A stretch of 64,000 nucleotides of DNA from an uncultured Alphaproteobacteria bacterium (GTDB lineage Bacteria; Pseudomonadota; Alphaproteobacteria; Rs-D84): contig CASCZI010000002.1 in NCBI GenBank assembly GCA_949156565.1, forward strand, positions 100,611-164,610, given 5' to 3'. The notes below the pieces were generated by a model, which saw nothing but the letters and a program-made list of their open reading frames with translations, was not told the origin of the DNA and ran no database searches. This document shows, piece after piece, positions 10,923 through 48,530 of this stretch. Position 1 is the first letter of the stretch. Each line of letters opens with the position of its first letter. Both the position numbers and the translations under genes were made by a program.

Positions 10923-11639
10923 TTATTGTCCATTAACCTTGGTATTAAGGCGCATATTTTCCCTGTTTAAATTTTCTTTGGTCACCGATACCGTGACATT
11001 AAATTCGTTGATCACTTCGTCAATCACAGACTTGGTTGCCGTAATGGGTGCGTCCTTGCCGTCTTTCTTATAGGCGTATGGTTTATCACGGAACCATGTA
11101 TTAAACGCCTTTATATCCACGTCTAATTGACGCTTTGCGTCGCCGTATTTACCACTGTTGGCGGCGGTACGAATATACATCAAATTCGATTGCAGACATT
11201 CAAGAACCGAACTCTGATTCAATTTATCAATACAGTTTTGCGTGCCCGATATAATGATACTGCGATCCTTGGACGCAACCGCACCCGATGCGCCTTCACT
11301 GGCCGCACCTGCCGCCTGTAACGATGTGGTCAAAACCGCTTTTTCCAGTTGTGTTTTAAGCCGCCGAATTGTCGCATTCAGATATTCATATTGCTTAAAC
11401 ATCTGTTGGGTCATGACGGTTGTCTTGATGGCAATAACTTCTTGCATCGCTTGACGCTGGGCCGAATCTCCCAGATTCTGTGCATGTCCCACATTATAAA
11501 CATGCGTTGTGCATAACGCCAATGACGGATTAATATAATCCGCCCCATCTTTGTCACAACCATTACTGGCCGCGCGCACGCCCCCCGACATCATCAAGGC
11601 CGCGATTAACCCACAAAAGATCTTTCTCTTATAATGCAT
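10923..11639 (-). CDS. secreted hypothetical protein
   Basis: A 238-aa ORF with a signal peptide. It lies immediately downstream of 11640-13421 and is probably co-transcribed with it. Confidence 0.5.
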   Translation of the reverse strand: MHYKRKIFCGLIAALMMSGGVRAASNGCDKDGADYINPSLALCTTHVYNVGHAQNLGDSAQRQAMQEVIAIKTTVMTQQMFKQYEYLNATIRRLKTQLEKAVLTTSLQAAGAASEGASGAVASKDRSIIISGTQNCIDKLNQSSVLECLQSNLMYIRTAANSGKYGDAKRQLDVDIKAFNTWFRDKPYAYKKDGKDAPITATKSVIDEVINEFNVTVSVTKENLNRENMRLNTKVNGQ

Positions 11640-28604: not shown

Positions 28605-28636
28605 AAAAAACCGCCCATATGGGCGGTTTTTATTTA
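28605..28636. terminator. bidirectional rho-independent terminator
   Basis: CCGCCCATATGGGCGG hairpin flanked by an A-run and a T-run. Confidence 0.6.
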
Positions 28637-29848
28637 GCCATTTAATGCTTCGAACCCGACGGTCATATATAATGTTTTCCAATGTCCGGCATCTTTGCCC
28701 GTTGATTGCGGGTTGTTCCCCAGACTGCGACTGCGTTCGACGGTGGTCAACACCAAATCAGACCCCACACGTTCTAAAATTTTAAACGGATCAACACCGT
28801 CACGCCACGAATAGACGCCATCTTTTTCCACGACCAGTGCCCGGAATGCCCCCAGTATAGGATAAATAAATCCCGTTGGCGTCATATAATCCATCGGCTT
28901 TTGATAATACTTGGACATTGCCCCTTCGAATGGAACAACCCCCTTAATCGCACCATATTTACCGTTTGTAACCGCATTGCGATAGAAATCCGCCATAGAC
29001 ACTTCGATCTGATCATAAAGCTTGAAAATATCCACCATAATGTTTTTCATTTTCACATACGGATTCTGGGGCGAATCCTTATGCGCTTTATATTGCGATA
29101 AATACGTATCCAGACATCTCTTTTTTCCGCTGTATGAAATGGTTGCCGCCACATCTTTGCCGTCATATTGATCGATATTGAACATGTTTAAAACCGCCAA
29201 AACGTCCATGACGTCAATGTCCCCCCTTTCGTCATTTTCTTTGTACACCAAACGTGATGCAAACGGTTCGTTTTTTAACGCGTCTTTGACAATATCAAAC
29301 TTGTTTTCCAATTCGGCCAACGATTGATCTTTGACCTGAACCGATGTGTTACGGGCGCCGGCCAGCTCTTGAAAAATCGATTCAACCCCGGTCAATATTT
29401 CCAAACGCACATATTGTTGATCCGGCCCCAGGGAATCTTTGCATTGTTGAATAATTTTATAGGTGTGCCCCCCGTCCACGTTGCCATGCACCGCCGGATC
29501 TTCGAAAACCACACTTAATTCGTTATTATAATTGTTATAACTCACACTTTTCGCCGATAATAAGATCCCGCGATTCATTAAAAAGAAATACGGCGATCCC
29601 ACATCCATCAATGTGTTACGTATTCCCTTGGCCACAAATGTGGTTAATTTTTGTTCCCGCGGATTGGTTTCCATCGGAATATTGTTCGGCAATTTGGTCA
29701 CATCACACATCGCGATATAGGCCATCGGATGTGTCTGGGCGGAAAATTCCACCTCTTCCCCGATATAGGGATTGGGAATTTTCCGTAATGACTTTACCGG
29801 AAATTTTATTTCAATGGGTGCCTTTTGGGCTTTGATTTTTTCTGTCAT
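28634..29848 (-). CDS. putative abortive-infection/defence protein (AIPR-like; ParB/DGQHR-like N-terminal motif), tentative
   Basis: A 404-aa cytoplasmic protein. An FFLMNRGILLSA segment resembles the AIPR NNGIT block. A NVDGGHTYKII segment resembles the DGQHR/DGQQR motif of ParB-like nuclease domains. It is divergent from an XRE regulator and bracketed by terminators. Confidence 0.35.
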   Translation of the reverse strand: MTEKIKAQKAPIEIKFPVKSLRKIPNPYIGEEVEFSAQTHPMAYIAMCDVTKLPNNIPMETNPREQKLTTFVAKGIRNTLMDVGSPYFFLMNRGILLSAKSVSYNNYNNELSVVFEDPAVHGNVDGGHTYKIIQQCKDSLGPDQQYVRLEILTGVESIFQELAGARNTSVQVKDQSLAELENKFDIVKDALKNEPFASRLVYKENDERGDIDVMDVLAVLNMFNIDQYDGKDVAATISYSGKKRCLDTYLSQYKAHKDSPQNPYVKMKNIMVDIFKLYDQIEVSMADFYRNAVTNGKYGAIKGVVPFEGAMSKYYQKPMDYMTPTGFIYPILGAFRALVVEKDGVYSWRDGVDPFKILERVGSDLVLTTVERSRSLGNNPQSTGKDAGHWKTLYMTVGFEALNG

Positions 29849-29995
29849 TCTTTGCTCCTGTCTAAGGTTTGTTATCGGATACGCTGTCTAACGAGCCATC
29901 CATATTTAAATAATAAGACACCCAAATCATCAATTCAACGTCATATATGACGTTTTTTGCTTGCAAAATGCATTTTTTTAATAAAAAATTCGATC

Positions 29996-30214
29996 ATGAA
30001 CGACATTAATCGTGAATTTGGCCAAATTTTACGCCGTTTTCGACGGGGACGTAATTTGCCCCAGGATAAATTTGCCGACCAATGCGGGATTAGTCGCGCC
30101 TATTACGGGCGCATTGAACGCGGCGAATACAGTCCTACGATCACCCTATGCCATCGAATTGCGACGGCCCTGTCGATCACGATGGATGATCTTTTTCGTG
30201 ATATGCCCATATAA
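29996..30214 (+). CDS. XRE-family helix-turn-helix transcriptional regulator
   Basis: About 72 aa, with the Cro/C1-type HTH (QDKFADQCGISRAYYGRIERGEYSPTI). The start is taken at MNDIN; the ORF track begins at 29957. Confidence 0.7.
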   Translation: MNDINREFGQILRRFRRGRNLPQDKFADQCGISRAYYGRIERGEYSPTITLCHRIATALSITMDDLFRDMPI

Positions 30215-30257
30215 TCCCCCCCTGTTTCTTTGGACCGGGGGATGGATCAATCGTAAT

Positions 30258-31043
30258 TTATTCCATCCGATACGTTGTGCCACCAACCGTCACATGAATC
30301 CCGGTGCCATGGCCGGCCGTCAAATTTCCGTAACAGATGCCGCCCGGCGTCCGAATGACCAGTGTCGGCGTCGTATATTTAACCGGGAACAATGGCGCAG
30401 TATTGGTTCCGGCGTGAATTTGCGTTACCCCCGCCGTACAGAGCGGTTGGCACACGTCCCCGACGCGCCCATATCCCGCGTCACATTCCCACGGGCAATC
30501 ATTGGCGTCCGTGATGGACCCATCGGGCGCGTCGGGGGTACCCGGACCGGTATAGTGCGCGTGCGCGGGGGCATTGGTACACGGGCGGACATTGTGATAC
30601 CATTTTTTCCAGGATTCGTTACGATAACCCGACAAATAAAATCCCCATCCCGCATCATACCAAAGATAACGGGTTTGATCATCCGACCAATAGTTTTCCC
30701 CATTCCAAGAGACTTCAAGCAAGAATGAATTTCCATCAGAATCACGGAAATACAAACTACCCGCACAATTAAAGATGCTGGAATTGTTTTGGGGGCTGGC
30801 CCAGTTTGCCTCTGATCCGTCAAAAAAGGTATAGCCAAATTGGTTATAATCCGTATCGGTCGTGGGGCACGGATGGCGAACATCATCCCCCGGACAATAA
30901 TAGGGTTCATAGCCCGGGGAACAGTTTGAACACGACCCATTATTCAGATAATACCCCGCCGCACATATTGCCGCATGGGCCGTCGCCCCGCCGCCCAAGA
31001 AGACGGCGACCACGCCCAAAAAACCGACAGTTTTTTTAGGCAT
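30258..31043 (-). CDS. secreted cysteine-rich protein (C-x-AG-Y-Y family)
   Basis: A 261-aa ORF with a signal peptide. It contains CAAGYYLNNGSCSNCSPGYEPYYC and CDAGYGRVGDVCQPLC, with many Trp and Tyr residues. Confidence 0.55.
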   Translation of the reverse strand: MPKKTVGFLGVVAVFLGGGATAHAAICAAGYYLNNGSCSNCSPGYEPYYCPGDDVRHPCPTTDTDYNQFGYTFFDGSEANWASPQNNSSIFNCAGSLYFRDSDGNSFLLEVSWNGENYWSDDQTRYLWYDAGWGFYLSGYRNESWKKWYHNVRPCTNAPAHAHYTGPGTPDAPDGSITDANDCPWECDAGYGRVGDVCQPLCTAGVTQIHAGTNTAPLFPVKYTTPTLVIRTPGGICYGNLTAGHGTGIHVTVGGTTYRME

Positions 31044-31910: not shown

Positions 31911-32641
31911 ATGGCATGCACCACACGACAAAATGTCACCCCCCAGACATCACGCGCACCGGCACGCATCAAAACACGACGCAATTCGGAAAATGTTGCC
32001 CCACTGGTGAATACATCGTCGACCAATAAAATTGTTTTACCCCGCACCGCATCGGGATGAACAACACAAAAAACGCCGTGAATATGTTCCGCACGTTCGC
32101 GCGCACTTTTATGTCCCATGTCACTGCGATATTTACGGCGCACCGAATTAACGTCGATCGCTATATTTAAATGCCGGGCAATGGGCCGGGCCAATAAAGT
32201 TGCCTGGTTATAACCACGATGAAACAAACGCCCCCATGCCAACGGCACAGGCATCACCAAATCCGGCGTGGCGGGCATATCCCCCAACAAACCAATCATG
32301 GCACGCGCCATAATATGACGATATTTAATGCGGCCGGCATGTTTAAACGGCAACATAATGTTACGCGACACATCATCATACACACACGCCGATCGCATCC
32401 AATGAATCTCGTTCTTGCCGGCGGCACACACCGGACACATGGGATGTGGTCCCAAATCCAGATCCGCCGCAAATGGATAACCACATATATGACAACGCGG
32501 ATTACCAATCCAATTAAACGTTGCCCAACATGCCGCACACATCATCCCGTGCGCGTCACACGGTGCCCCACAAATCGGACAGATGGGCGGAAATAAAAAA
32601 TCGATGATTTTACCCATAACACGCGCCGGGCGTTTTACCAA
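31907..32641 (-). CDS. comF: ComF-family protein (double zinc-ribbon plus phosphoribosyltransferase-like domain)
   Basis: N-terminal CxxC...CxxC pairs and a C-terminal PRTase-like LLVDDVFTSGAT motif. Confidence 0.75.
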   Translation of the reverse strand: MVKRPARVMGKIIDFLFPPICPICGAPCDAHGMMCAACWATFNWIGNPRCHICGYPFAADLDLGPHPMCPVCAAGKNEIHWMRSACVYDDVSRNIMLPFKHAGRIKYRHIMARAMIGLLGDMPATPDLVMPVPLAWGRLFHRGYNQATLLARPIARHLNIAIDVNSVRRKYRSDMGHKSARERAEHIHGVFCVVHPDAVRGKTILLVDDVFTSGATFSELRRVLMRAGARDVWGVTFCRVVHAI

Positions 32642-34092
32642 GACATACTTTTATACGTTTTCTTACCAACCGTATCGCCAAACATATCACGCTTTTTCTG
32701 GGTCAATGTTTCGAATTGATCATTGGAAATCATCCGCAAAACATACCCTTGTTCATCACGTGCCGACAATACCGGCATAATACGGTGTTCCGACACACCG
32801 GTATCACGTAAAACCTGTTCAACAATGGCCAAGCGGCGGGCGGCCAATTTCCGTGCCGTTGCATCGTGGGTAACACTTTCTGGAATAGATACTTGGACCG
32901 AACGTTTTGGATTGGCCAAGACAATGGATGCATATTCCGTCAACAGATTATAGTTTTCACGGGACAAGGATGCATCATCCCCACGAAATTTAATCTTGAT
33001 CTCTAACGGGCGAACGCCGCCGGCCTCGGATAAATCACGGACGGCGGTAAATCCTTCGGATTGGGATTCCATGTCACTCACCACGTCAAAACGATCGTCT
33101 ATTTGAAATGTTGAAAGATGCTTGTTCTCGGATAAAAAGGTTTTACGAAACGCCTTTTTTAATTCCGATGGCGTCATCGTGGCCATATCCGTATCGGCCC
33201 GCGCCAGCACCGTGGGGGCCGTCGCCGTGCGAACCGGACGTACGGTCACACCCGTATCCATCGGCACAACCATTCGATGAACCACCGCCGCCCCAGACGA
33301 TGCATCATTAATCGCCACGGGCGTTGTCCCCGATGTCGCCGATGCCGTTATGGACGAATCATTTGACGCATCCGCCAATACCCCGACCCGTGATTGATCA
33401 TGGCCTGCCATAGATGCAACCGGGGTCGATACAGGTTGTGACGACACACCCCCACGACGGGGTAAAACACGCCGCGCCGTGGTTGTGCCAGTGGTCGATG
33501 CAGGCAATGGACGCACCGCAGCAACCGTCGGGGTCGTTTCGGCGCGACGCGCGGCATCAACTAATTTTTCAATTTCTGCATCCAACGCCCCCATGCCCAC
33601 CGATTGGGATAATGGGGCCGGTGGCACATCCCGAACCGTTGCGATACGGGGTTGATCCAAACTTTCTTCGGGTAATTCGGCATCACTGCGAATCACAGAA
33701 AATTCCTGGGGGGTGGGCATCCGCAACGGGGTGTCTGTACGTGCCCATAAATCACCACTGGGGCGATGGGGGACCAAAACATCCATTACCGATGAATTGG
33801 CGGCGATACGCGCCCCTTGATCCGCGGGGGGAATGGGATCTGCGTCCTGTTTATGAACACGCGCAACCCGATTTTTGTCGGCCACCGATGCACGGGCCAC
33901 AACCGTTTTTTTCACCGATTTTTGGGATTTTGAATCTGCACCAACCCCAAACGCCGCACGGGCCGACACCGCGTTTCCACCAATATTAACCACCGGCAAA
34001 CGTGCATCCGCCAACGCCGATGTACAAATCGCCATTGATAATACAGAAATACCAATCCGTCGCATGATTTCCTTTTCCTTATGCCCCATCAT
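32635..34092 (-). CDS. secreted low-complexity protein with degenerate C-terminal OmpA-like domain
   Basis: A signal peptide (MRRIGISVLSMAICTSALA) and a long Ala/Thr/Pro-rich region. The C-terminus (LSRENYNLLTEYASIVL...KLAARRLAIVEQVLRDTGVSEHRI) resembles an OmpA_C fold but lacks the GhTD motif. Confidence 0.4.
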   Translation of the reverse strand: MMGHKEKEIMRRIGISVLSMAICTSALADARLPVVNIGGNAVSARAAFGVGADSKSQKSVKKTVVARASVADKNRVARVHKQDADPIPPADQGARIAANSSVMDVLVPHRPSGDLWARTDTPLRMPTPQEFSVIRSDAELPEESLDQPRIATVRDVPPAPLSQSVGMGALDAEIEKLVDAARRAETTPTVAAVRPLPASTTGTTTARRVLPRRGGVSSQPVSTPVASMAGHDQSRVGVLADASNDSSITASATSGTTPVAINDASSGAAVVHRMVVPMDTGVTVRPVRTATAPTVLARADTDMATMTPSELKKAFRKTFLSENKHLSTFQIDDRFDVVSDMESQSEGFTAVRDLSEAGGVRPLEIKIKFRGDDASLSRENYNLLTEYASIVLANPKRSVQVSIPESVTHDATARKLAARRLAIVEQVLRDTGVSEHRIMPVLSARDEQGYVLRMISNDQFETLTQKKRDMFGDTVGKKTYKSMSW

Positions 34093-36441: not shown

Positions 36442-37764
36442 ATGAAAACACCATCTGACCCCATTTATTTGGCAATCAAGCGGCAAAACGGCGAACGTTT
36501 TGCCCAAACCATTCGTCGTTATGATAATGGGATATTTGACATCCCCAATATTGTCCATCGCATACGTTATGCCGGACGGGATGCCACACCATTGTTGGAA
36601 TACCTTGAATCGATCAAGAATTCACGCATGACGTCGGATTACCAAACCGATGAATCACCATTCGAATTGCTGGCCGCGGCCGGATATCATGCCGAATATG
36701 CCGATACGATGTACAAGAAAAATGCGATTTCCCGCTATTTTGCCCCCGGCGAAGAATTATGCACATTTAACGATGATATGCGTCATCAAAATTATTATAT
36801 TATAAACGCCGTGCGTCACGATGCCGACACCTTACGTCGCAGTGATTTTACCGTCCCCCAACGCCAAGACGCCTATGGCACCAGTGTGATTTCCATTCAG
36901 ATGACAAAAACGGGCGGATTTATATCCATTAAAAACCGATATAATCATGCGGTGCCACATCCCGACAACACATTCGACAGTGACCCTGATCAAATTATTC
37001 CCGGCCTCTCTGCGTCATTGAAAAAATATTTTGATGTTGATTTTAATTGTGCCTCTCAATTACCCGGTGGATATACATTAATTAAAAATCAAATTGTGAA
37101 ATATAATTTTGAAATAAACGATGTCTATTACGGTGACACATTTTATACAGACTTTAATAAAATTATTGAATTAAACCGTGATTATGAATTGATGATGGAT
37201 TATATGGTCTTTGACCTGCATCGTCGGGAATTTACCATGTATCCCCGTGGCCGTTCCACAGAACTTGACCCCCGTGACGATTTCCGACATGTATTACCCA
37301 TAGAAATTGGGGACACCCCCATCCAAACAACATCAGAAAAATTACCCGATGGAACAATCGTCCGATGCCTGTACGCGCATCACACAAAAATCGCCGAAAT
37401 GCACAATGGCCAAATTATTCGGTTAAATTTGCCACACAGCACACGAATTGGCGATGCATTTATGATGAACAATCGCACCTTGATTGATTTACAAATTCCG
37501 CGTGTCGCCTATATCGGTGATTACTTTTTGTTACAAAACCGCGTTTTGCCCCAATTAGAAATCAATGCAGATACCATCGGGACCAATGCATTATCTAACA
37601 ACACATCGATGACCAAATTAACATTAAACACATCCAGAATTGGTTATGGTTTTATGGATGCCAACAGAAAATTAACCCAATTGATCTTAAAGAAAAAGCC
37701 CACAGACATTGGCATTCAAAACAATTACATGAAAAAATTATTTGCCGACGCCATGGCGCGATAA
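36442..37764 (+). CDS. leucine-rich-repeat protein (BspA-type LRR C-terminus), effector-like
   Basis: A 440-aa cytoplasmic-type N-terminus. The C-terminus carries about four repeats of the pattern L-x-L/I-P-x-x-x-x-IGD-x-F-x-x-N-x-x-L. It is encoded opposite to the flanking dcw genes. Confidence 0.55.
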   Translation: MKTPSDPIYLAIKRQNGERFAQTIRRYDNGIFDIPNIVHRIRYAGRDATPLLEYLESIKNSRMTSDYQTDESPFELLAAAGYHAEYADTMYKKNAISRYFAPGEELCTFNDDMRHQNYYIINAVRHDADTLRRSDFTVPQRQDAYGTSVISIQMTKTGGFISIKNRYNHAVPHPDNTFDSDPDQIIPGLSASLKKYFDVDFNCASQLPGGYTLIKNQIVKYNFEINDVYYGDTFYTDFNKIIELNRDYELMMDYMVFDLHRREFTMYPRGRSTELDPRDDFRHVLPIEIGDTPIQTTSEKLPDGTIVRCLYAHHTKIAEMHNGQIIRLNLPHSTRIGDAFMMNNRTLIDLQIPRVAYIGDYFLLQNRVLPQLEINADTIGTNALSNNTSMTKLTLNTSRIGYGFMDANRKLTQLILKKKPTDIGIQNNYMKKLFADAMAR

Positions 37765-37790
37765 AAAACGGGGCATGGCCCCGTTTTAAT
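37764..37790. terminator. bidirectional rho-independent terminator
   Basis: ACGGGGCATGGCCCCGT hairpin followed by a T-run. Confidence 0.55.
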
Positions 37791-38881
37791 TACGCAAATT
37801 TTAATAACACCAACGCCAATCCCGAAAACAAAATGGCCAAGATAAAGAATCGTTCCACAATTTTGGTTTCCGGCCATCCCAATTCTTCGAAATGATGATG
37901 CAACGGTGCCCGACGAAATACCCGCCGTCCCGTACCGGTCAAATGACGTGTCGCCTTGAAATACATCGTCTGAACAAACGATGATAACAGGATCAAGACC
38001 ATCATCCCCGCGGCAATTCCCATAATAATTTCAGATTTTAGCAGCATCGCCACCGTTCCCATAAATCCCCCCAACGCCAACGATCCCACGTCACCCATAA
38101 ATATGGACGCCGGCTTTGAATTATACCATAAAAACCCAAGCACCGCCCCAAATGCCGCGCCCAACGGCGCGTACAGCCCACTGGCGCCCGGCAAAAACAT
38201 AACCGTATCCATAAATCCGATACGTGTCGCCCCGTACAATGCGACAACCAACACCACCAGCACCGGCAAATATAATTTCGATAACTGGGAATCCAGACCA
38301 TCGGTAATGTTCGCCGCGTTCGCCGCACCCGCAATCACGAAATAGGCAAAGATATAATACAACACCATCCCCAATGGCAATAATATCCCCGACCCAATCG
38401 CCAAAGAATATTCGGGAATATACGGCGGCATGGTCCAATTAATCAATGTCGCCAATATTAAAACACATCCGGCCTCTAACCCCAGACGTAACAGGGGGGT
38501 TAACCCATTGCTCGATTTTTTAGATTGGGACGTCACTTTTTTATAATCGTCGGCAAACCCAATTAATGCAAACATGACCAAAGATAATATCGCGATCCAT
38601 GCATCCGCACTGCGTATCGGCATAAACAAGATCGACGACACAATAATCGCCCCCAGTACCAGAATCCCCCCCATGGTTGGGGTCCCAGCCTTTTGACGAT
38701 GGGACGCCGGGACGTTTTCACTGATGGGTTGCCCCATCCCTTGAAACCGACGCATGGCCCGAATAAATGGCCGACCCGCCAACATCATCATGACAAATGC
38801 CAATCCAAATGACGCCGCAAATTGGGCCCACCCACTGGCAAAAAATGTAAAACCGTGCGATAAAAATAACTGGCTTAGCAT
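37790..38881 (-). CDS. mraY: phospho-N-acetylmuramoyl-pentapeptide transferase
   Basis: A 363-aa 10-TM protein carrying MraY motifs (DDYKK, GLDS-like, NAANITDGLDSQ). Confidence 0.92.
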   Translation of the reverse strand: MLSQLFLSHGFTFFASGWAQFAASFGLAFVMMMLAGRPFIRAMRRFQGMGQPISENVPASHRQKAGTPTMGGILVLGAIIVSSILFMPIRSADAWIAILSLVMFALIGFADDYKKVTSQSKKSSNGLTPLLRLGLEAGCVLILATLINWTMPPYIPEYSLAIGSGILLPLGMVLYYIFAYFVIAGAANAANITDGLDSQLSKLYLPVLVVLVVALYGATRIGFMDTVMFLPGASGLYAPLGAAFGAVLGFLWYNSKPASIFMGDVGSLALGGFMGTVAMLLKSEIIMGIAAGMMVLILLSSFVQTMYFKATRHLTGTGRRVFRRAPLHHHFEELGWPETKIVERFFILAILFSGLALVLLKFA

Positions 38882-38940
38882 GATAAATCCTTTCTATACC
38901 TTGCCCTTTATTTTACCACAAAAATTTTTGAAAAAAACCG

Positions 38941-39243
38941 TTATTTCACATCACAAGGGGTGATGTTGTCATCATCCAAGATTAAAATCCATTCATCGCC
39001 CTTGGACCACAAGGTCACCGGAATATCATTCAATACCCCGTCATATTTGGCCCCAGACGCCGATACAGCCCGCCCCAGCGTTACCGCATCCCCGTTAATG
39101 ACGGCCGTTATCGTTTCCCCATCCGCCGCCGGTTGGATATCAACCATGTATGCCCCACATTGATGCACCGGCCGCACCGGCACCGGTTGATCGCACCCAG
39201 ACATACAAAATGCCACCAACACCCACATAATCCATTGTCGCAT
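38941..39243 (-). CDS. MliC/PliC-family lysozyme-inhibitor-like lipoprotein
   Basis: Start at MRQWIMWVLVAFCMSGC, giving a lipobox. It carries an SASGAKYDG motif and a C-terminal Cys, as in MliC. Confidence 0.5.
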   Translation of the reverse strand: MRQWIMWVLVAFCMSGCDQPVPVRPVHQCGAYMVDIQPAADGETITAVINGDAVTLGRAVSASGAKYDGVLNDIPVTLWSKGDEWILILDDDNITPCDVK

Positions 39244-39262
39244 ATATTGTCCCCCCATTGAT

Positions 39263-41311
39263 TTAAAAAATCCCCCCAACACGCGCATCAGACGCCGCCT
39301 GAACCTTTTTCGGGGCGGGATTGGGTGATTGGCCATCTTTAAATACTTCGGTAATAATCATGCCATCTGGATCATCGGTGGCGGATGCCCCACTGCGCCG
39401 GTTAACCCGCATAAATGTTAAACCCGATGGCACCGCAAAGGGTTGATTTTTTTCATCCCGCAGCGCGGTTTTCATGAAATCTGCAAACACACGGGCGGCC
39501 ATATGACTGCCGGCGCCACGTCCCAATGGACGGGGGGTATCAAACCCAAGATACACACCCGCAATCAAATTCTTTGAAAATCCGACAAACCATACATCCT
39601 TGACCTCGTTCGTGGTGCCGGTCTTGCCGGCAATGGTGTGACCGGGAACCCGTGCCTGTTTCCCCGTACCGCGTTCAACCGCCCCCTGCAGAATCGAAAC
39701 CATTTGATACAAACTCTGATCATCGGACAAGGGTTGGTTTTCCATCGTTCCCCGCGGGGGTGTCAACCCATCTTGCCATGGGATCATCTCATGCCCCGCC
39801 CCACCCAAAACATGGCCATAGCGATCTTCGATATAATCGACCATTTTGGGTTCAATCGCGCGACCACCATTGGCAAATGCCGCATACCCCAACACCAATT
39901 TTTCCAATGTCGTTTCCCCCGACCCCAATGCCATCGATAAATTAATATTGGGCATATCCGTGGGATAAACACCAAATCGTTGGGCCACAGAAATAGCCTT
40001 TTCTGCACCAATTTTTTCAACCAAGCGCACACTGGGGACATTTCGTGATGTTTCCAGCGAAAGACGCAACGGCAAATCCCCCAGGAATTTTTTATCATAA
40101 TTTTCCGGTTTCCACATCGTGTCATCGGCACGCCATCCCACAATCGGCGCATCCAATAATAATGTTGTGGGTGACATCCCCGATTCCAATCCCGCCAGAT
40201 AAACAAACGGCTTGATCGTACTGCCGATTTGACGACGGGCCTGGGTTGCACGATTAAACGAACTGTCACTAAATGACCGGCCCCCGGCCATCGCCACAAT
40301 ACGCCCCGTGTGGGGATTCATGGCAATGATCGCGCCCTGTAATGGTTGATCGGCATCGGGATGCGCGGCGTTATAGGCATCCAGTTCTTTGGCCAATGCC
40401 GCCGATGCCGCCCGCTGTAATTGGGGAACAATTGTCGTTTTAATATACAGACCGTCGTTATAAAGAACCTCGCGCCCTAAATCAGTCAATAATTGCCGGC
40501 GCACATCTTCGGCAAAATATTGAAATTCTGGTTCCATCTGGGCGGTAAATCCACTGTTGATATTTAATTCTTCGGCGGCGGCCACGGCCGCTTCGTCGGG
40601 GGTAATATATCCTTCTTCGACCATACGACGCAGGACATAGTTCCGACGTTCCACCGCACGATCACGATTATTGGGTGCCTTGGGCAATGATGCCAAAAAT
40701 GCACACTCACTAAGGGTTAATTCCGACACCTTTTTATTAAAATACATCAACGATGCCGACCCAACGCCATACGCACGGGCCCCCAAGAAAATTTGATTGA
40801 GATAAAGAGTTAAAATATGTTGCTTTGAAAATGCACGTTCCAACCGCAGGGCCAAAATCGCTTCCTTTATCTTACGCGACAGGGTTTGTTTCGACGAAAG
40901 AAAGAAATTCTTGGCCACTTGCTGGGTAATGGTGGATGCCCCAGAAAATCCCACCTTGAACCCCAATACGCGGGCCGCATTCCCCGCCGCCGCACGGGCA
41001 ATACCCATAACATCAATTCCCGGATGGGTCCAAAAATTCTGATCTTCGGCGGCAATAAATGCATTCACCAACTGCTGTGGCATATCCCCCAGATCGATAA
41101 ACACCCGCCGTTCGGCCGCATATTCAATCAACAATGACCCGTCTGATGCATATAAACGTGTGGCCACCGGTGGCGCATACGTCGCCAAACGACGATAATC
41201 GGGTAAATCATTACCATAAATCAAAACCAATGCCGCCAACGCCCCCACCGCCGCGGTCAAGGCCCAGAAAACCATATTAATAAAAATGCGCCAAAATTTC
41301 TTAACGGTCAT
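39263..41311 (-). CDS. mrcA: penicillin-binding protein 1A (bifunctional transglycosylase/transpeptidase)
   Basis: An N-terminal TM helix and a GT51 domain (EDQNFWTHPGID). A transpeptidase domain (STIKP, SxN, KTGT) follows. Confidence 0.88.
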   Translation of the reverse strand: MTVKKFWRIFINMVFWALTAAVGALAALVLIYGNDLPDYRRLATYAPPVATRLYASDGSLLIEYAAERRVFIDLGDMPQQLVNAFIAAEDQNFWTHPGIDVMGIARAAAGNAARVLGFKVGFSGASTITQQVAKNFFLSSKQTLSRKIKEAILALRLERAFSKQHILTLYLNQIFLGARAYGVGSASLMYFNKKVSELTLSECAFLASLPKAPNNRDRAVERRNYVLRRMVEEGYITPDEAAVAAAEELNINSGFTAQMEPEFQYFAEDVRRQLLTDLGREVLYNDGLYIKTTIVPQLQRAASAALAKELDAYNAAHPDADQPLQGAIIAMNPHTGRIVAMAGGRSFSDSSFNRATQARRQIGSTIKPFVYLAGLESGMSPTTLLLDAPIVGWRADDTMWKPENYDKKFLGDLPLRLSLETSRNVPSVRLVEKIGAEKAISVAQRFGVYPTDMPNINLSMALGSGETTLEKLVLGYAAFANGGRAIEPKMVDYIEDRYGHVLGGAGHEMIPWQDGLTPPRGTMENQPLSDDQSLYQMVSILQGAVERGTGKQARVPGHTIAGKTGTTNEVKDVWFVGFSKNLIAGVYLGFDTPRPLGRGAGSHMAARVFADFMKTALRDEKNQPFAVPSGLTFMRVNRRSGASATDDPDGMIITEVFKDGQSPNPAPKKVQAASDARVGGIF

Positions 41312-41361
41312 AATATCCCCCAGGATAAAACAATTCCCCCCCGAACGCAAGTATCGGCCAA

Positions 41362-42645
41362 TTATTTTTTACCCCCGCCAATCCCACGCAGATTTTTCCA
41401 TCCCTTACGCGTGGTGTCCCATAATTTTTTCAAATCGCCCCCCAACTGTTTGCTGATATTTTCTTTGACACTGCCGCCCAAATCTGTGGCCAATTTTTCG
41501 GCCCGCGTCACCATATATGCCGCCAAGAACCCCACCAACAACGTGACCATCCCATCGCCTTGATTAATTATTGGCATGCCATTTCCATCAAAATGTATCA
41601 CAAATCCCATCAACGCCGCCGCAACCGCAACAACCATGGCCAAGGATATAAAATAAATCGACGCATCAATAAATCGTCCCAACTGGGTCGTTAGGTTTTC
41701 TGACTTGAAAATCCCCATAAACCCATTGAATATATCCCCGGCAATCCCTTTGTAATTGGTTTTCGTAACCGTTTCTGCCACCGCGGTAAACGGTAACATG
41801 AACAAGGCCAAAAACAATTCGGCAATGACCCCCAACGCCATCAATGTAAATTTCCATATATTAAATACAAAAACAAATACCATGGCCGCCCCGACGACAA
41901 ATCCCGTCACACTGTGCCCGATCCCCCCAATCATCCAACGCCATCCGGTTGCAATCGCGGTATAGAAAAATCCAGTAATCCGGGTTGGCAAACACATCAA
42001 ATCTGCCGCCGTACCGGCGTCCAGGATTAATCCATCCCCGGCATTGGCCACAACATATTGATGGACCGCCGCACACGTATCGGGCAATGTCACACCCGCG
42101 GTTTGCGTCACCGCCCCTAAAATCAAATCGGCCATATATGATCCAAACATCACGATCGGCGTCACAATCCATACAAACAACCGCGCCGGCCCCACATTTA
42201 AGATCATAATCCAGACCGTAATCAATATCCCCCGGGTAAAAATCTTTTGAACCAAATCCCATGCTTTTTGTCCATCGCGCATCATTTGATACGTATCAAA
42301 CATGATCCAAAATGCATATGCAATAATGATAAACATGATCATAAACCGGACCAACGAACTTTCCAATATTTCCCCAATTAATGACATCGCCCCCACAAAG
42401 GCCAAACCAATACGTGCCTCTGGCGGGACAAAGCCCGGTGTCCGATATGAATCTTGGATGGAACCTGAAAATGCGGCCATATCATGGGATAAATTTTGTG
42501 TAAACGCGGCCGCATTGTGTTCGGTCATCCATGTTCCATAATCCCCAATATCGCCCGGCGTGGTGGGGGTGGCACCCCACACCGGCGTGGCCATCAATGC
42601 CACCGCCATTACAATTGCCCGAATAAAATGACACAAACGGTGCAT
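41362..42645 (-). CDS. VirB6/TrbL-like polytopic membrane protein, paralog 1
   Basis: A 427-aa protein with a signal peptide, about 6-8 TM helices, a central loop bearing a Cys pair, and a Gly/Lys-rich C-terminal tail. It is one of five paralogs. Confidence 0.45.
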   Translation of the reverse strand: MHRLCHFIRAIVMAVALMATPVWGATPTTPGDIGDYGTWMTEHNAAAFTQNLSHDMAAFSGSIQDSYRTPGFVPPEARIGLAFVGAMSLIGEILESSLVRFMIMFIIIAYAFWIMFDTYQMMRDGQKAWDLVQKIFTRGILITVWIMILNVGPARLFVWIVTPIVMFGSYMADLILGAVTQTAGVTLPDTCAAVHQYVVANAGDGLILDAGTAADLMCLPTRITGFFYTAIATGWRWMIGGIGHSVTGFVVGAAMVFVFVFNIWKFTLMALGVIAELFLALFMLPFTAVAETVTKTNYKGIAGDIFNGFMGIFKSENLTTQLGRFIDASIYFISLAMVVAVAAALMGFVIHFDGNGMPIINQGDGMVTLLVGFLAAYMVTRAEKLATDLGGSVKENISKQLGGDLKKLWDTTRKGWKNLRGIGGGKK

Positions 42646-42651
42646 GACGCC

Positions 42652-44088
42652 TTACTCCTTGCCACCAATGGCTTTGGAAATCCGTACCACAACATTCTGG
42701 GGGATTGCCCAAATCTTTTTCCCCAATTCTTTGACCGCCCCACCGAAATCAAAGCTTTGGGATGATTTCTTGGCCAAAATCCCATCAACCTTGGGATTAA
42801 CCACGTAAAAGTAAAGCAAACACAACCCCACCATCACCATCAAGAAATCCCATCCATCATCCAAGAAATCGAACGCCCCCGGATATCGACGTTCCACCAT
42901 TGTTTTTTGTGTGTTAAAACATTGACGAAACGCATCTGCATCCATTTCACCCGATTGCAATCCCACCTGTTCACATGTGGAAAAGACATGATGAATGGCC
43001 ATTGTTTGGGCATCTGAATGAACCGGCCCCGATATACCCATTAATGGGGGCATAATGGCACTGTACCCATCACGTGGACCGGGCATTGTCATATCCGCCG
43101 CATAGGATATGGTTGCATATATAATCAAAATCTTTAACGTGATTGCCACAATTTGAACCGCGGCATTAAACAACATTTCGACGGCATTCTTTACCAACCC
43201 ATCGGCCAATTTCCACGTTCCTTCGAACGCACTGGCCGCCAAGAGTAACGGCATAAATATAATCACAAAGATTAATCTAAACACAACCGAAAGAACCTGG
43301 AAAAACAAATTAAACCCAATCATCAAGAAAATTATCACCAATGCCAATCCTGCAACCCATGTCATGGCCCCACCACCCATGCCCAACCATGCATAATTCA
43401 TCAATGAAAATCCCGCCGCCGCACCGGCCAACATCACGGTATTTAAATTTCCCATAACACACATAAACGGCCGCAACACAGGATTAAGAACATCGTCACT
43501 TTCCCCAGACATGGGACATGCCGCCGCCGATTCAACACCCGTTGCCGCCATGGCCAATTCAGATCCCACAAACATAACCGGCGCCACCGTGATATTGGTC
43601 ACCACACGTAACGCGCCCGTCCCCCCCATCCCCAGGGTCCCCATCAGCACCCCCACAATCATCACACGCGACCCGAGTTTCCATACCTTGTCCACCCACG
43701 GGGCCAATTCTATTTTACGTTCTTTGTCATCGGGATTGGCCGCCGCAACGGCCGCATCGTAAATGTATTTCGCACTATAGAGAAACAGCCATACCCCAAA
43801 CCCAATCGCCAACACAATCCACAAATGATCGACAATCGCGGTCCAAAACATTTCGGTCCCGGCCCCGATCGCCCCAAACAATTTTTCAATATACCCACAC
43901 AAGAAACATCCATTGACCGATGCAATATCACCATCACCCACCCCAATGGCACGCAGAAATCCCGGCAAACTGGTGTACGTCAAACTGGCCCCACCAATCG
44001 ATGACGACAGATACCATATCCCCACCCCCAGCGCAATCGCCGCAAACAAAAAACGCACGGCAATAATGATTATCTTGGCCTTGAACAT
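42652..44088 (-). CDS. VirB6/TrbL-like polytopic membrane protein, paralog 2
   Basis: A 478-aa protein with the same architecture: a central loop Cys pair, an FxxxFMP proline helix, and a basic tail. Confidence 0.45.
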   Translation of the reverse strand: MFKAKIIIIAVRFLFAAIALGVGIWYLSSSIGGASLTYTSLPGFLRAIGVGDGDIASVNGCFLCGYIEKLFGAIGAGTEMFWTAIVDHLWIVLAIGFGVWLFLYSAKYIYDAAVAAANPDDKERKIELAPWVDKVWKLGSRVMIVGVLMGTLGMGGTGALRVVTNITVAPVMFVGSELAMAATGVESAAACPMSGESDDVLNPVLRPFMCVMGNLNTVMLAGAAAGFSLMNYAWLGMGGGAMTWVAGLALVIIFLMIGFNLFFQVLSVVFRLIFVIIFMPLLLAASAFEGTWKLADGLVKNAVEMLFNAAVQIVAITLKILIIYATISYAADMTMPGPRDGYSAIMPPLMGISGPVHSDAQTMAIHHVFSTCEQVGLQSGEMDADAFRQCFNTQKTMVERRYPGAFDFLDDGWDFLMVMVGLCLLYFYVVNPKVDGILAKKSSQSFDFGGAVKELGKKIWAIPQNVVVRISKAIGGKE

Positions 44089-45327
44089 TTATTGTGCGCC
44101 CCCATCTTTGGATGTATCTTTTTTCTGGGTTGCGTCACCCGATTTTTTCGCATCCGCGCCGGCATCACCCAAAATTGTTTGTCCCAATTGCTTGGTCGCC
44201 CCAACCAGTGTCTTGGTTAATTGCCCCGCATCATTGGCCAAACCTTTGCTAATTTTGGTTTCGGTTCCAACATCAAATGCCCCCAGAACCATTTTCGTCA
44301 CATCGGGAACCATTGATATCAAGAAATTTACCACATACACCAACACCACCGCCCCCATCAGGGTGACCCCCGCCAAGTTTTCATCACTTAAATCCGACGC
44401 CAACACCGTACCCGATGTAATTTTTCCCATTAAATCGACGCCACCCGCATCCGCGCCCCCAAAGAATTTGGCAATCAAAACCATCGCCACGGTATATGTT
44501 AATACCGCCGCACCCAACGCGACAATTGCATTAATCACTTTTTTAATCTGATCTGTCCCCATCTTTTTCCCATAATTTTTCATCCAATCGGGCGCGTCTG
44601 ATTGACGGAATGCGAACAGCGCCAACGACAATGGAAAGAAAAACGCAAAATACGTCATGGCCACAATTATATCGGCAAAATAAAAACAATACCGCACAAA
44701 TAATTTAAAGAATCCATACACCAGATATAACCCAATAAAAAACATCATTACGTGTTTAATAAATGCACCAATTCCCCCCAACGCCCCCCACGAAAACGCC
44801 GCATCCATCACCGCCAGGCCCAATTTAACATACGCCTGAAATTGGGTGACCGTGGTTTTCATAAGCATAATGATCCGATCGCGCAATTGGGGCCGATAAA
44901 ATCCGTCGTCACCCATTGGCATCGGCGTATAATCCACCCGCGCATCAACCGCATCATCGGTCATACCCGACACCACCTGAGTATAACGCAGGGTAATTTC
45001 CGCCACCGGTTCAAATGTAATCGATGTCACAACACGGGGCACGACCACCCCCATAGCCAATAATGTTAACGCCACCAGCGCACTGATCAGAACGGGTTGA
45101 ACCGATTTTTTATAAAACGGGTCTTTGACCCCATCTTTGATATTTTTCCACACCGCATTGATGATGTAAAATGCCAACAACCCACAAAACAACACCACAC
45201 ACAACGTGGCAAATTTTCCGTACGCCGCGGCGGCCGCACCGGACACCACATTAATCAGTTTGTCAAACACCGGACATCCCCAGCATTGAACCACATGATC
45301 GACCAAAGGATTCATTGCATTATTCAT
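44089..45327 (-). CDS. VirB6/TrbL-like polytopic membrane protein, paralog 3
   Basis: A 412-aa protein with an N-terminal CWGCPVF motif (compare CWSCDMF in paralog 5), multiple TM helices, and a charged tail. Confidence 0.45.
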   Translation of the reverse strand: MNNAMNPLVDHVVQCWGCPVFDKLINVVSGAAAAAYGKFATLCVVLFCGLLAFYIINAVWKNIKDGVKDPFYKKSVQPVLISALVALTLLAMGVVVPRVVTSITFEPVAEITLRYTQVVSGMTDDAVDARVDYTPMPMGDDGFYRPQLRDRIIMLMKTTVTQFQAYVKLGLAVMDAAFSWGALGGIGAFIKHVMMFFIGLYLVYGFFKLFVRYCFYFADIIVAMTYFAFFFPLSLALFAFRQSDAPDWMKNYGKKMGTDQIKKVINAIVALGAAVLTYTVAMVLIAKFFGGADAGGVDLMGKITSGTVLASDLSDENLAGVTLMGAVVLVYVVNFLISMVPDVTKMVLGAFDVGTETKISKGLANDAGQLTKTLVGATKQLGQTILGDAGADAKKSGDATQKKDTSKDGGAQ

Positions 45328-46604
45328 TTCTTTTTCGTCAGCCCCAGTGCCCCCGTCACCCCACGTCCCATCTTTTTGATATTGCCCGCCATTTTTTTGG
45401 CATCCCCCGTCACGGCGTTATACATTTTATCCATATCCGGTGCATACTTCTTTAACTGATCACGGGTCCGTTGAAAGATTTGACCCATCAAATAAAATGT
45501 TAAAATCGCCGTCAACCACAACACCGAATGTGTACCAAATCCAAGATCCGGGGCAAGCGTGGGTACATTACCGGCGGCCATACCGTTTGTGCCCGCCACA
45601 AAAACCGATGAATCCCACCGAAACAAGGCATGAATCACCGCAACGTTAATACATAAAATAAACGCACACGCAATCATGGTAATCACCAGTTTTTGTAACG
45701 CGGTTACAATACCAGAAAACGGGGGCCAAATATCAAACCATTTATCGGGATTTTTTGGCTTTGCCACCCATGTTAAAACATTAAAGGGATATAATATTAA
45801 TGCCATGACAAAGTTAAAAATTGCCTGAATAATCAATAACGCCATAAATAAATTACATCCCACAAACGCAAAGACCAACAAAATACCCGTAATAATGTTC
45901 AGAAAATCTTCGCCCCCATGTGGAATCAATGTCGCCAATCCCCGAATACCACGATCGATAAAATCAAATCCGCGCTTGATCACCTGATTGTTGGCGTGAC
46001 TGATGTCGGCCACTGGTTGAACCAGGAATTGACATGACGACGCACTGATCCATTCATGGGATAAAACATCTGCCGGACATTCAATTTGCGGCCCGCGACC
46101 ACCGGCGACGGCGGCACTGATCCGATTGGTATAAATCGCCCCAAATTCAAGAAAAGGATTTACCAGCCATTCGGTGACAAATACCGGTCGAACCTGTAAC
46201 AAAACCAACGCCGCGATTAACCCGCGCATTAATGGACGGGCCACATTTTGTACGATCGATGTACCCGATGCCTTGCCGTCCCACATTTCACCGCCACCCG
46301 AAAATCCTAAAAATCCCAACCATGATTTCGGAATGTACATTTTCACCAAATACATCCCAATGGAAATTCCCACAAACCCATAAACCAAAATATAAACAAT
46401 TCCACCACCGTGGCCCACAAAATAATCATATGTGGCGGTCGCCACCATCATCATGGTATCCAAAATCAACGGCACAAACGGCGCCAGGTTTAAATGATCC
46501 ACAATACCCCATGCGGCATGCGCCCCCACCGGCATTATAAATGCCGCCGCGGCCAAACACGCACCGAAAAAAACCCGCCAAAAACGCGATTTAAATAAAT
46601 ACAT
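45324..46604 (-). CDS. VirB6/TrbL-like polytopic membrane protein, paralog 4
   Basis: A 426-aa protein with a signal peptide, a Cys pair in the central loop, and a KKMAGNIKKMGRG tail. It overlaps paralog 3 by 4 bp. Confidence 0.45.
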   Translation of the reverse strand: MYLFKSRFWRVFFGACLAAAAFIMPVGAHAAWGIVDHLNLAPFVPLILDTMMMVATATYDYFVGHGGGIVYILVYGFVGISIGMYLVKMYIPKSWLGFLGFSGGGEMWDGKASGTSIVQNVARPLMRGLIAALVLLQVRPVFVTEWLVNPFLEFGAIYTNRISAAVAGGRGPQIECPADVLSHEWISASSCQFLVQPVADISHANNQVIKRGFDFIDRGIRGLATLIPHGGEDFLNIITGILLVFAFVGCNLFMALLIIQAIFNFVMALILYPFNVLTWVAKPKNPDKWFDIWPPFSGIVTALQKLVITMIACAFILCINVAVIHALFRWDSSVFVAGTNGMAAGNVPTLAPDLGFGTHSVLWLTAILTFYLMGQIFQRTRDQLKKYAPDMDKMYNAVTGDAKKMAGNIKKMGRGVTGALGLTKKK

Positions 46605-46662
46605 TCTCTTTCTTTATTTCAATTATATCACATTTGATGCAAAATATGATATAGTAAAACCA

Positions 46663-47952
46663 ATGAACATCTTAAAAAAAATCTGGATCGCGATTGTCGC
46701 CATCTTGCCAGGTGCAGGATTGGCCGCCGTCCCATTTGTGGTGGGCGGGATTGCCGGATTGGGGGCGATTGCCGGATTTTCTATATATCGATCGATGGCG
46801 CCGGTTAATATGGCCGATGCCATGTCTTTTTTCTCGGCCTGTTGGTCGTGTGATATGTTTTCTGCGATTATATCGGCGATGTCAAACCTGTTGCCGGGGG
46901 TATATCATGCGTTGGGATTGGTTATTATCCCGATCGCTATTGGATTAACGGCCCTGTGGCTGGGGTGGACATTGTTGTCGGGATATTTAAATATCAAGGT
47001 GGATAACCCATTAACCATCACCACAAATCTAACGCGGCATATGATTAAATTGGCGTTTGTAATCACCTTGATGGCGGCCCCATTGCCCCGAATGATATCA
47101 ACCATCGCCATCGAACCTATTTTTAATATCGGGCTTAGTCTGAACCGTGCGGCATCGGGGGATGATGCATTTGCATCATGTATCGTGGCCACGGCCATTG
47201 CCGATCCCGCATCCATCAGTGCCGATGCCGCGAATTCTGGCGCATTTTCGCCCCATTTGCGCCACAATTTAACATGTGAAATTGCCAACGTGCATCAGAT
47301 AACAGGTCTGGGGATGACGGTGGGGTGGACCATGCTAAACATGGCATTTAATGATAAATACATGCATAAAATTATGTGGGATGTCCCCATTTTCCCGAAC
47401 GTTCCAATCTTTTTGGGGGGCTTGCTGATTCTTTTGCTGTTCTTTTTCGCTCTCTTACCGGTTCCGCTTTATTTTCTGGATGCATTGGTAACATTATCCA
47501 TGGATTTGATCATGTTGCCCCTTTTTCTGTTGGGCTGGGTATTCAAAGACTGGAAAATCATTCCCGGTGGCGGGGCCAAATCCATCCAAGAAATCATCAA
47601 TAACGCCGTCAAGGCGACGGTTGGAATCGCCCTCGTTGGGACATTTGTAACATTCGCAATCATGTTCTTAAACGCGGTATTTGGTCATTGGGACGGGGCG
47701 GCAACCCTGGGGGCGGCAATGGCACAAAATGACCCCAGTATTTTAATGGACGGCCTGATGATGCAAAACGATTCGCTGATTACGGTGGTGCTGATGGGGT
47801 TGTTTATCGCGATGTTTATGACCATGATTCCCCAACTGGTCAAGATGTTGTTTAAGGTCGAGATCAGCAGTAAAACATACGACAAAGTTAAAAAAGATTT
47901 AGAGACCCTCTGGAAAAATGTCCAGAAAATCTATGCCGGCATAAAAAAATAA
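46663..47952 (+). CDS. VirB6/TrbL-like polytopic membrane protein, paralog 5 (divergent)
   Basis: A 429-aa protein with a CWSCDMF motif, a Cys pair, and many TM helices. It is transcribed divergently from paralogs 1-4. Confidence 0.45.
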   Translation: MNILKKIWIAIVAILPGAGLAAVPFVVGGIAGLGAIAGFSIYRSMAPVNMADAMSFFSACWSCDMFSAIISAMSNLLPGVYHALGLVIIPIAIGLTALWLGWTLLSGYLNIKVDNPLTITTNLTRHMIKLAFVITLMAAPLPRMISTIAIEPIFNIGLSLNRAASGDDAFASCIVATAIADPASISADAANSGAFSPHLRHNLTCEIANVHQITGLGMTVGWTMLNMAFNDKYMHKIMWDVPIFPNVPIFLGGLLILLLFFFALLPVPLYFLDALVTLSMDLIMLPLFLLGWVFKDWKIIPGGGAKSIQEIINNAVKATVGIALVGTFVTFAIMFLNAVFGHWDGAATLGAAMAQNDPSILMDGLMMQNDSLITVVLMGLFIAMFMTMIPQLVKMLFKVEISSKTYDKVKKDLETLWKNVQKIYAGIKK

Positions 47953-48020: not shown

Positions 48021-48530
48021 ATGAACACGTTTCCGATTCTTTACTGGCCACGCAAGACCACCAACGATACGGATTATCTGTTGGCCCGCAAAAGTATCAG
48101 TACCGCCACCGGCGTCATGCCTGAAATCATTACCGATGATCTGGATATAGGGGGATTATTTACCGAAACACCCGGCGCGGTTGTTTATTATCCAGTATTT
48201 TGCGAATCAACCGGATGGTGGGGCGAATTATTGGGATCAGATGCCATTGTTACGGACAAAATGATCATATCACCCGAATGTCAATTAATGGTGATCCGTC
48301 ATGCCGACACGCCCGCACCACGGGGATGTAACCAATTGTTGGCCGCGGAAATTTACCCCGCCAGTGGGTTTTTCAAAAAAATGAATTCCGGGATCGCCAC
48401 GGTTGCCGATATGTTGGCCACCGACACGGGAACAATCTTGGCCCTTTTTTCTGGACGCAATCAAAATCAATTTATTCGCGTTCTGGAATCAACCGGCAAT
48501 TCATACCTGGGATGCATCGGTCGTTATTAA
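48021..48530 (+). CDS. hypothetical protein
   Basis: A 169-aa ORF with no confident motif. Confidence 0.4.
   Translation: MNTFPILYWPRKTTNDTDYLLARKSISTATGVMPEIITDDLDIGGLFTETPGAVVYYPVFCESTGWWGELLGSDAIVTDKMIISPECQLMVIRHADTPAPRGCNQLLAAEIYPASGFFKKMNSGIATVADMLATDTGTILALFSGRNQNQFIRVLESTGNSYLGCIGRY

Follow-up and report, generated by a model that had tools for sequence, protein, structure and literature searches.

The stretch of DNA analyzed here (the window) comprises 64,000 nucleotides of contig CASCZI010000002.1 (assembly GCA_949156565.1), from an uncultured alphaproteobacterium of the Rs-D84 lineage. It carries an array of five adjacent genes, designated A to E, that encode polytopic membrane proteins. 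VirB6 is the polytopic inner-membrane base (stalk base) of type IV secretion systems (T4SSs), and a preliminary description made from the sequence alone had interpreted the five proteins as VirB6/TrbL-like. That description had reported open reading frames (ORFs) of 412 to 478 amino acids (aa), four of them consecutive on the minus strand and the fifth divergent, and the ORF list agrees with it exactly, coordinates included. The features of the locus are collected in Table 1.

Genes D, C, B, and A are tightly packed. D and C overlap by 4 bp, C and B abut (gap of 0), and B and A are spaced by 6 bp. This packing suggests that the four genes form a single, translationally coupled operon. A spacer of 58 bp separates D from gene E, which is on the opposite strand. 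This spacer contains one promoter-like match per strand; these matches were not enriched over those in shuffled sequences and are suggestive only.

Table 1. Genes of the five-member array and other features of the window
Feature	Position	Strand	Size	Basis	Description
Paralog A	41362-42645	-	427 aa	ORF call	VirB6-superfamily membrane protein, A/D subgroup
Paralog B	42652-44088	-	478 aa	ORF call	VirB6-superfamily membrane protein
Paralog C	44089-45327	-	412 aa	ORF call	VirB6-superfamily membrane protein
Paralog D	45324-46604	-	426 aa	ORF call	First gene of the putative D-C-B-A operon
Paralog E	46663-47952	+	429 aa	ORF call	Best-conserved paralog, family hub
D/E divergent spacer	46605-46662		58 bp		AT-rich; presumed promoters in both directions
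orf169	48021-48530	+	169 aa		Soluble, directly 3' of E; possible accessory gene or merely a linked housekeeping gene
virD4	26251-28506	+	751 aa	Pfam matches	VirD4-type type IV coupling protein

Shared ancestry of the five genes

Pairwise identity among the five proteins is only 17 to 27%. C and E matched each other in phmmer searches (E value of 3e-14, 23% identity) over nearly their full length, and BLASTP linked A with D (2e-6), B with C (1e-5), and B with E (1e-4). BLAST clustering joined C to E and A to D, B remaining on its own. Profiles were built from 75 to 80 orthologs per paralog, taken from related genomes, and were compared by hhalign. Long, near full-length, collinear alignments were obtained for 8 of the 10 paralog pairs, with scores of 44 to 81 and probabilities of 65 to 97% (94.9% for A-D, 90.5% for A-E, and 96.8% for C-E). 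Comparisons with reversed targets, which served as nulls, gave scores of 14.7 to 27.3 and probabilities of no more than 3.4%. The B-D and C-D pairs were at the null level, and both are joined through E, which is connected to all four other paralogs. The scores above the reversed nulls and the position of E as a hub indicate that the five genes are true, very old paralogs, and the shared ancestry for which the preliminary description had proposed an alignment check is borne out.

The low pairwise identity and the two pairs at the null level are in keeping with a different explanation, in which unrelated polytopic membrane proteins resemble each other in hydrophobic composition only. The separation between real and reversed scores and the collinear, near full-length alignments argue against this, as does the finding that one external superfamily profile (described below) is matched by all five proteins with E values of 4e-20 or better. 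We give such an explanation virtually no credence, and chance similarity of the five is excluded by the reversed-null comparisons.

A deeper view of the array is provided by the closest nonorthologous relative of E, P0169, which is encoded on a metagenomic contig of 34% GC (L081). On this contig, P0169 is followed by four paralogs on the same strand, of 619, 459, 460, and 437 aa. As judged by hidden Markov model (HMM) and tblastn searches, gene 1 corresponds to E, gene 3 to C, gene 4 to B (121 bits), and gene 5 to A; gene 2 sits in the D position. This same-strand gene order indicates that the ancestral operon order was E-D-C-B-A and that the inversion of E relative to D-C-B-A, which the preliminary description had correctly pointed out, is specific to the lineage of the window. 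The five-gene set itself is older than the split of the Rs-D84 and L081 lineages. Upstream of the L081 array lies a gene for a 78-aa membrane protein with two helices (positions 9768-10004 of that contig) that recalls, as an impression only, one of the small genes of vir operons, virB3 or virB2. The L081 array also faces four divergent genes (921, 336, 180, and 147 aa; region 4928-10004), none of which has a Pfam match or a homolog in the window.

Relationship to VirB6 and VirD4

A profile of the E family, searched against 1.84 billion representative proteins, returned only 188 matches at an E value of ≤1e-3. Besides orthologs of E and C, these include proteins of 400 to 1,500 aa, and the distant relatives are all named "hypothetical protein." Of 68 distant relatives, 29 matched PF04610 (TrbL/VirB6) at an E value of ≤0.01 (best, 1.2e-8), where fewer than one chance match is expected across all families; most of the individual scores are below the Pfam gathering cutoff. 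The region matched by PF04610 is the hydrophobic core that follows the central loop, and in P0180, P0184, P0214, and P0215 the TrbL stretch overlaps the segment aligned to E or is contained in it. A distant-superfamily profile was then made from the matched domains of 88 of the distant proteins and was compared with each ortholog profile. Probabilities were 99.6% for A (E value of 1e-24), 99.6% for B (2e-23), 99.8% for C (7e-30), 99.3% for D (4e-20), and 100% for E (6e-48), and reversed nulls reached at most 11%. The 88-domain set was selected with E, so the value for E is circular, and A to D constitute the independent tests. Further homolog searches returned E orthologs again (mixed profile) or only 4 proteins (distant-relative profile).

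Among the same 68 distant relatives, 11 (P0198 and P0215 among them) have an N-terminal M23 peptidase domain, that is, a peptidoglycan hydrolase fused to a VirB6 module. Other families that appeared in the Pfam and NCBIfam scans of the five window proteins (Iron_permease, SID-1, EI24, and CD3337/EF1877; E values of 0.008 to 3.7) were sub-noise and were not used.

The structure of E was modeled with AlphaFold2. A model from 29 near-identical orthologs was poor (predicted local distance difference test [pLDDT] score of 56.6), and a model from 65 sequences, with the paralogs and four distant relatives added, had a pLDDT of 65.5 and a predicted template modeling score (pTM) of 0.58. When the latter model was compared with 350,542 PDB chains by Foldseek, ranks 1 to 5 were all TrwI/VirB6 chains of the R388 T4SS stalk, with probabilities of 0.96 to 1.00 and target-normalized TM-scores of 0.44 to 0.55. 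TrwI/VirB6 chains had already occupied ranks 2 to 5 with the earlier, poor model. E is predicted, on this modeling, to have the VirB6 fold as in TrwI (7O3V). FAM70, a eukaryotic family with four transmembrane helices, was matched by 14 of 105 orthologs (best E value, 3.5e-6); one such match covers residues 272 to 356 of an A ortholog. Since only some orthologs are affected and FAM70 contradicts the fold result, these matches were treated as compositional.

Taken together, the intermediate sequences, the profile-profile matches, and the modeled fold support membership of the five proteins in the VirB6 (TrbL/VirB6) superfamily by remote homology. The window proteins themselves are invisible to the Pfam model, and by sequence comparison they fall into a rare clade of their own, with 188 representatives after clustering at 50%.

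Hydropathy averaged over orthologs revealed 4 to 6 strongly hydrophobic cores, with a hydrophilic region in the middle; the number of transmembrane helices is an estimate from hydropathy and from the helices of the E model. Cysteines were called conserved when present in ≥94% of orthologs. Four proteins have a conserved central Cys pair: A (C191/C218, 27 residues apart), B (C191/C210, 19 apart), D (C176/C191, 15 apart), and E (C173/C205, 32 apart). Three have a conserved N-terminal CxxC motif: B (C61xxC64; CFLC, residues 61 to 64), C (C15xxC18; CWGC, residues 15 to 18), and E (C60xxC63; CWSC, residues 60 to 63). Conserved cysteines were also found at C372/C390 in B and at C43 and C214 in C. 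The preliminary description had assigned a central pair with a spacing of 25 to 30 residues to four of the five proteins, a pair with a much longer spacing to the third paralog, and an N-terminal Cys motif to two proteins. The pair in four of the proteins stands; the spacing must be revised to 15 to 32 residues, C has no central pair, and the N-terminal motif is present in one more protein than was recognized. The basic C-terminal tail that it had described was found as well, with 6 to 10 Lys and Arg residues within the last 40 positions. The hydrophobic cores, the hydrophilic region with its Cys pairs, and the basic tail would be consistent with a polytopic inner-membrane protein that has a large loop in the periplasm and its C terminus in the cytoplasm.

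The topology of VirB6 is known from work on Agrobacterium, and by analogy the central Cys pairs and the N-terminal CxxC motifs are probably periplasmic. The N termini of A and D resemble signal peptides (D, ..GAHA/AW), those of B and E have a hydrophobic anchor, and C, which is without an N-terminal hydrophobic segment, begins directly at its CxxC motif. W222 and W297 are invariant among E orthologs. An invariant, essential Trp in a conserved transmembrane/cytoplasmic region has been described for VirB6 (PMC2653234).

A VirD4-type coupling protein is also encoded in the window. It has Pfam matches to T4SS-DNA_transf (3.8e-49), TraG-D_C (8e-19), and TrwB_AAD_bind (1e-16), and its Walker A motif (GTGKT) and DE box are intact. 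The virD4 gene is about 13 kb from the array and stands alone, with an RNA methyltransferase/pseudouridine synthase pair on one side and an AIPR gene on the other. Full-length orthologs (58 to 72% identity) were found in four related loci with the same RsmE/pseudouridine synthase neighbors, and in one of these four, virD4 is about 1.7 kb from the array block. The VirB6/TrbL-like reading of the preliminary description is thus supported by PF04610-positive relatives, by the profile matches of 99.3 to 100%, and by the presence of virD4 in the window.

Conservation and gene neighborhood in Rs-D84

Relatives of E at ≥60% identity number in the hundreds. All are "hypothetical" proteins from uncultured gut Alphaproteobacteria labeled Candidatus Enterousia or "Rickettsiales bacterium," and GTDB places Enterousia in the order Rs-D84 (PMC12306168). 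The genomes of this order are mostly smaller than 1 Mb (about 0.7 to 1 Mb), are without most biosynthetic pathways and the standard sugar, amino acid, and peptide transporters, and encode many hypothetical membrane proteins; the organisms are thought to be obligate symbionts or parasites (PMC12306168).

Synteny was analyzed with one genome per species; E was present in 163 species genomes, and 80 loci were examined. The A-B-C-D(-)/E(+) arrangement was found in 80 of 80 loci wherever the contig extends far enough. Each paralog has its own ortholog, with median identities to the window protein of 46% (A), 61% (B), 55% (C), 59% (D), and 62% (E); 75 orthologs of A, 77 of B, and 80 of D were collected. 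Not one of the five genes has been lost among the 80 species loci, despite genomes of about 0.7 to 1 Mb. The same block, including orf169, is present in a more distant relative (L085, 50% identity).

On the E side, the order of genes is constant: orf169, then the gene for ribosomal protein L31, and then that for inositol monophosphatase. orf169 was found in 80 of 80 loci with a median identity of 74%, above that of any of the five membrane proteins; its product had no Pfam or PDB match and no detectable homology. Its constant position after E makes orf169 a possible, uncertain component of the system; it sits in a block with the L31 and inositol monophosphatase genes. On the other side, the PBP1A gene adjoins A in the window, as part of a PBP1A-MliC-MraY-FtsW-MurG block on the 37790-41350 side. 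In about 50 related genomes, this block is found beyond inositol monophosphatase, on the E side, which points to a local rearrangement that spared the five-gene block. The A-side flank in other genomes consists of UvrD and an exonuclease or of LptD/LptG. The preliminary description was correct in that virB3 and virB4 do not adjoin the array; its neighbors are housekeeping and envelope genes.

TrbL/VirB6 and VirD4 proteins are typical products of conjugation genes, and an abortive infection (AIPR) gene adjoins virD4, as might be the case if the array had been left behind or carried in by an integrated conjugative element or a plasmid transfer region. The conservation data argue otherwise. The array has a fixed chromosomal position and its own orthologs in 80 species-level genomes, its GC content (0.46 to 0.49) is typical of the window, scans of the window and the related loci found neither a relaxase nor an integrase nor VirB4 nearby, and virD4 keeps the same housekeeping neighbors in five genomes. 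A mobile-element origin has very little to recommend it, and a mobile-element remnant is largely excluded by synteny.

Several other features of the window were recorded. The stretch that adjoins virD4 (28634-31043) contains the AIPR gene, a small helix-turn-helix gene, and an unannotated 261-aa ORF; it has a lower GC content (0.44) and may be a small defense or variable island. A 440-aa ORF with a weak match to BspA-type leucine-rich repeats (36442-37764, plus strand) lies between ftsW and mraY on the opposite strand, and none of the 80 related loci yielded a counterpart. Beside murG, at a place where one would expect a Mur ligase, is a 485-aa ORF (32635-34092, minus strand) that has no Pfam match and is present in 45 related loci at 49% identity. 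Two adjoining genes (10923-13421, minus strand) encode secreted proteins of 238 and 593 aa with signal peptides and no meaningful Pfam match. The 593-aa protein has many Cys residues and a long Ala/Gln-rich stretch, possibly a coiled coil, and the pair may be surface or adhesion proteins. Genes for an AcrB-type RND pump, a 206-aa ORF, an outer-membrane efflux protein, and a MarR regulator (4974-9992, minus strand) have been kept despite the very small genome.

A candidate secretion platform and its relation to known systems

We consider it probable that the five genes are ancient, nonredundant virB6 paralogs whose products form the platform of a scattered T4SS, similar to the rvh system of Rickettsia, together with VirD4. 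That the proteins function inside a complete T4SS is likewise likely. In the proposed mechanism, all five genes would be coexpressed, with D-C-B-A forming a translationally coupled operon and a divergent promoter serving E. We infer that the five proteins would assemble into one complex in the inner membrane, as the VirB6 platform of a chromosomally scattered T4SS; that the orphan VirD4 ATPase about 13 kb away would be the coupling protein of the same T4SS; that the central hydrophilic region would be a periplasmic domain stabilized by disulfides of the Cys pairs, with the basic C-terminal tails facing the cytoplasm; and that the machine would move proteins or DNA between a metabolically dependent bacterium and a partner cell.

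A number of results weigh against this proposal. The five proteins had no match to PF04610 at an E value of ≤10 in the Pfam scan, and the HMM check suggested in the preliminary description therefore failed for the proteins themselves, which fall below the gathering threshold of 25.9 bits; NCBIfam likewise gave no TrbL/VirB6 match for the five. PF04610 was matched by only 1 of 105 orthologs (E value of 6e-4). Searched against PDB sequences, the E profile and the 68-sequence distant profile returned nothing relevant, not even TrwI. The confidence of the E model (see above) is moderate, and the Foldseek E values were 0.06 to 0.29. In most genomes, virD4 is unlinked to the array. None of virB2, virB3, virB4, and virB8 to virB11 was found in the window (where ORFs of ≥150 aa were scanned for VirB4 and VirB8 to VirB11), in the 10 kb to its left, or in about 1.6 Mb of sequence flanking the array in the 80 related loci, a search that left roughly 85% of the genome uncovered. 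The Walker A-containing ORFs in the variable flanks of these loci were all IF-2, PNPase, RarA, MutS, or PBP1A, and no VirB4 or VirB11 was among them. In Rickettsia, the rvh genes are spread over five islets (PMC2653234), and since they are scattered in this way, the absence of T4SS genes near the array is weak evidence.

The same absence, in the window and in the related flanks, of any other T4SS structural or ATPase gene favors the main rival, in which proteins of VirB6 fold have been exapted as a T4SS-independent, hetero-oligomeric inner-membrane channel or uptake system for metabolites or lipids from a partner cell, the T4SS having been lost or reduced and virD4 being part of something else. 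The rival is also in line with the position of the array beside cell envelope and housekeeping genes, with the divergence of the family past detection by the Pfam TrbL model, and with the reported lack of standard transporters and abundance of hypothetical membrane proteins in Rs-D84 (PMC12306168). We nonetheless think it unlikely. An intact VirD4 is conserved across the clade, and no role is known to us for a coupling protein that lacks a T4SS channel; nor do we know of any T4SS-independent function of VirB6. Scattered T4SS genes are, moreover, normal in Rickettsia, the closest analogue (PMC2653234).

A ComB-like T4SS for DNA uptake (competence), in which VirB6-like proteins would act as Helicobacter ComB6 does and pass DNA to ComEC, was also considered. 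A ComEC gene (Competence/DUF4131) is present about 10 kb to the left of the window on the same contig, another ComEC gene adjoins a VirB6-like pair in lineage L083, and ComB-like features of Rickettsia VirB7 and VirB9 were described by Gillespie et al. (PMC2653234). ComEC is widespread, however, and its proximity here is loose; VirD4 is conserved in these genomes, whereas ComB systems use none. We know of no five-member array of ComB paralogs, and we regard a competence system as quite improbable.

Returning to the VirB6 platform, five single-copy paralogs that have never been lost under genome reduction, in two lineages, fit a hetero-oligomer. The R388 stalk base is a VirB6 pentamer that is inserted in the inner membrane and has a VirB5 pentamer above it (PMC9259494). 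By analogy, the stalk base here might be a VirB6 heteropentamer to which each of the five paralogs contributes one protomer, a tentative idea that we put forward as a possibility rather than as an expectation. No publication was found that proposes a heteropentamer for any VirB6 array. If true, the T4SS core would be asymmetric, with each position specialized, and an explanation would be offered for the long-unexplained five-fold proliferation of virB6 in Rickettsia. The occurrence of exactly five fixed paralogs and the pentameric state of the solved VirB6 make this hypothesis directly testable.

In the literature searched, no publication connects Rs-D84 or Enterousia, an enigmatic and uncultured lineage that is widespread in the gut, with type IV secretion. 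The VirB6 homologs and the conserved VirD4 are a concrete, testable candidate for the lineage's cell-contact machinery. They suggest that it uses a T4SS to interact with partner cells; if this is true, Rs-D84 bacteria in the gut depend for their way of life on contacts with other cells that a T4SS mediates. The results also extend virB6 multiplication of the Rickettsia type beyond the classical intracellular Rickettsiales, to a compact subfamily that Pfam does not detect. A new profile could be seeded with the ortholog alignments, by which hundreds of "hypothetical" proteins might be annotated.

Several known proteins provide a framework for comparison. The solved VirB6 of R388, TrwI (PDB 7O3V/8RT9/8RTD; Macé et al. 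2022, PMC9259494), resembles the predicted structure in its long, mostly hydrophobic helices and helical periplasmic part. It differs in being the product of a single gene, a homopentamer capped by VirB5, whereas five distinct genes are present here; identity is 13 to 16%, with no sequence-level match, and the window proteins have about 100 to 170 extra residues. The PF04610 family, which includes Agrobacterium VirB6 and RP4 TrbL, is related through intermediate sequences and by profile-profile comparison, and the window proteins lie under its reportable threshold. The large metagenomic relatives (600 to 1500 aa), some of them fused to M23 domains, match the E profile with E values of 1e-7 to 1e-26, and many are PF04610 positive; in contrast to the window proteins, they carry an N-terminal Peptidase_M23 domain or long extensions.

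The rvh T4SS of Rickettsia includes five tandem VirB6 paralogs, RvhB6a to RvhB6e, whose sequences diverge from one another by about 80% (Gillespie et al. 2009, PMC2653234). These proteins are 674 to 1154 aa long with a mean domain of 413 aa, all five are PF04610 positive, and their genes are placed after virB3-virB4 (PMC2653234). The window array shares with them five tandem, very divergent paralogs, a reduced-genome alphaproteobacterial host, and vertical chromosomal inheritance, and in both cases T4SS genes are dispersed and not in one operon, virD4 being the only T4SS gene located besides the array in the regions searched here. Unlike RvhB6a to RvhB6e, the window proteins are 412 to 478 aa, essentially the domain only, without long additions on either side; PF04610 does not detect them, their genes do not adjoin virB3-virB4 and include an inverted one, and they have conserved CxxC and Cys pair motifs. 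virD4 is solitary here, whereas in the rvh system it follows virB8 to virB11, and the host belongs to a gut lineage (order Rs-D84) and not to the intracellular Rickettsiales. The array is thus a compact and divergent form of the virB6 array known from Rickettsia.

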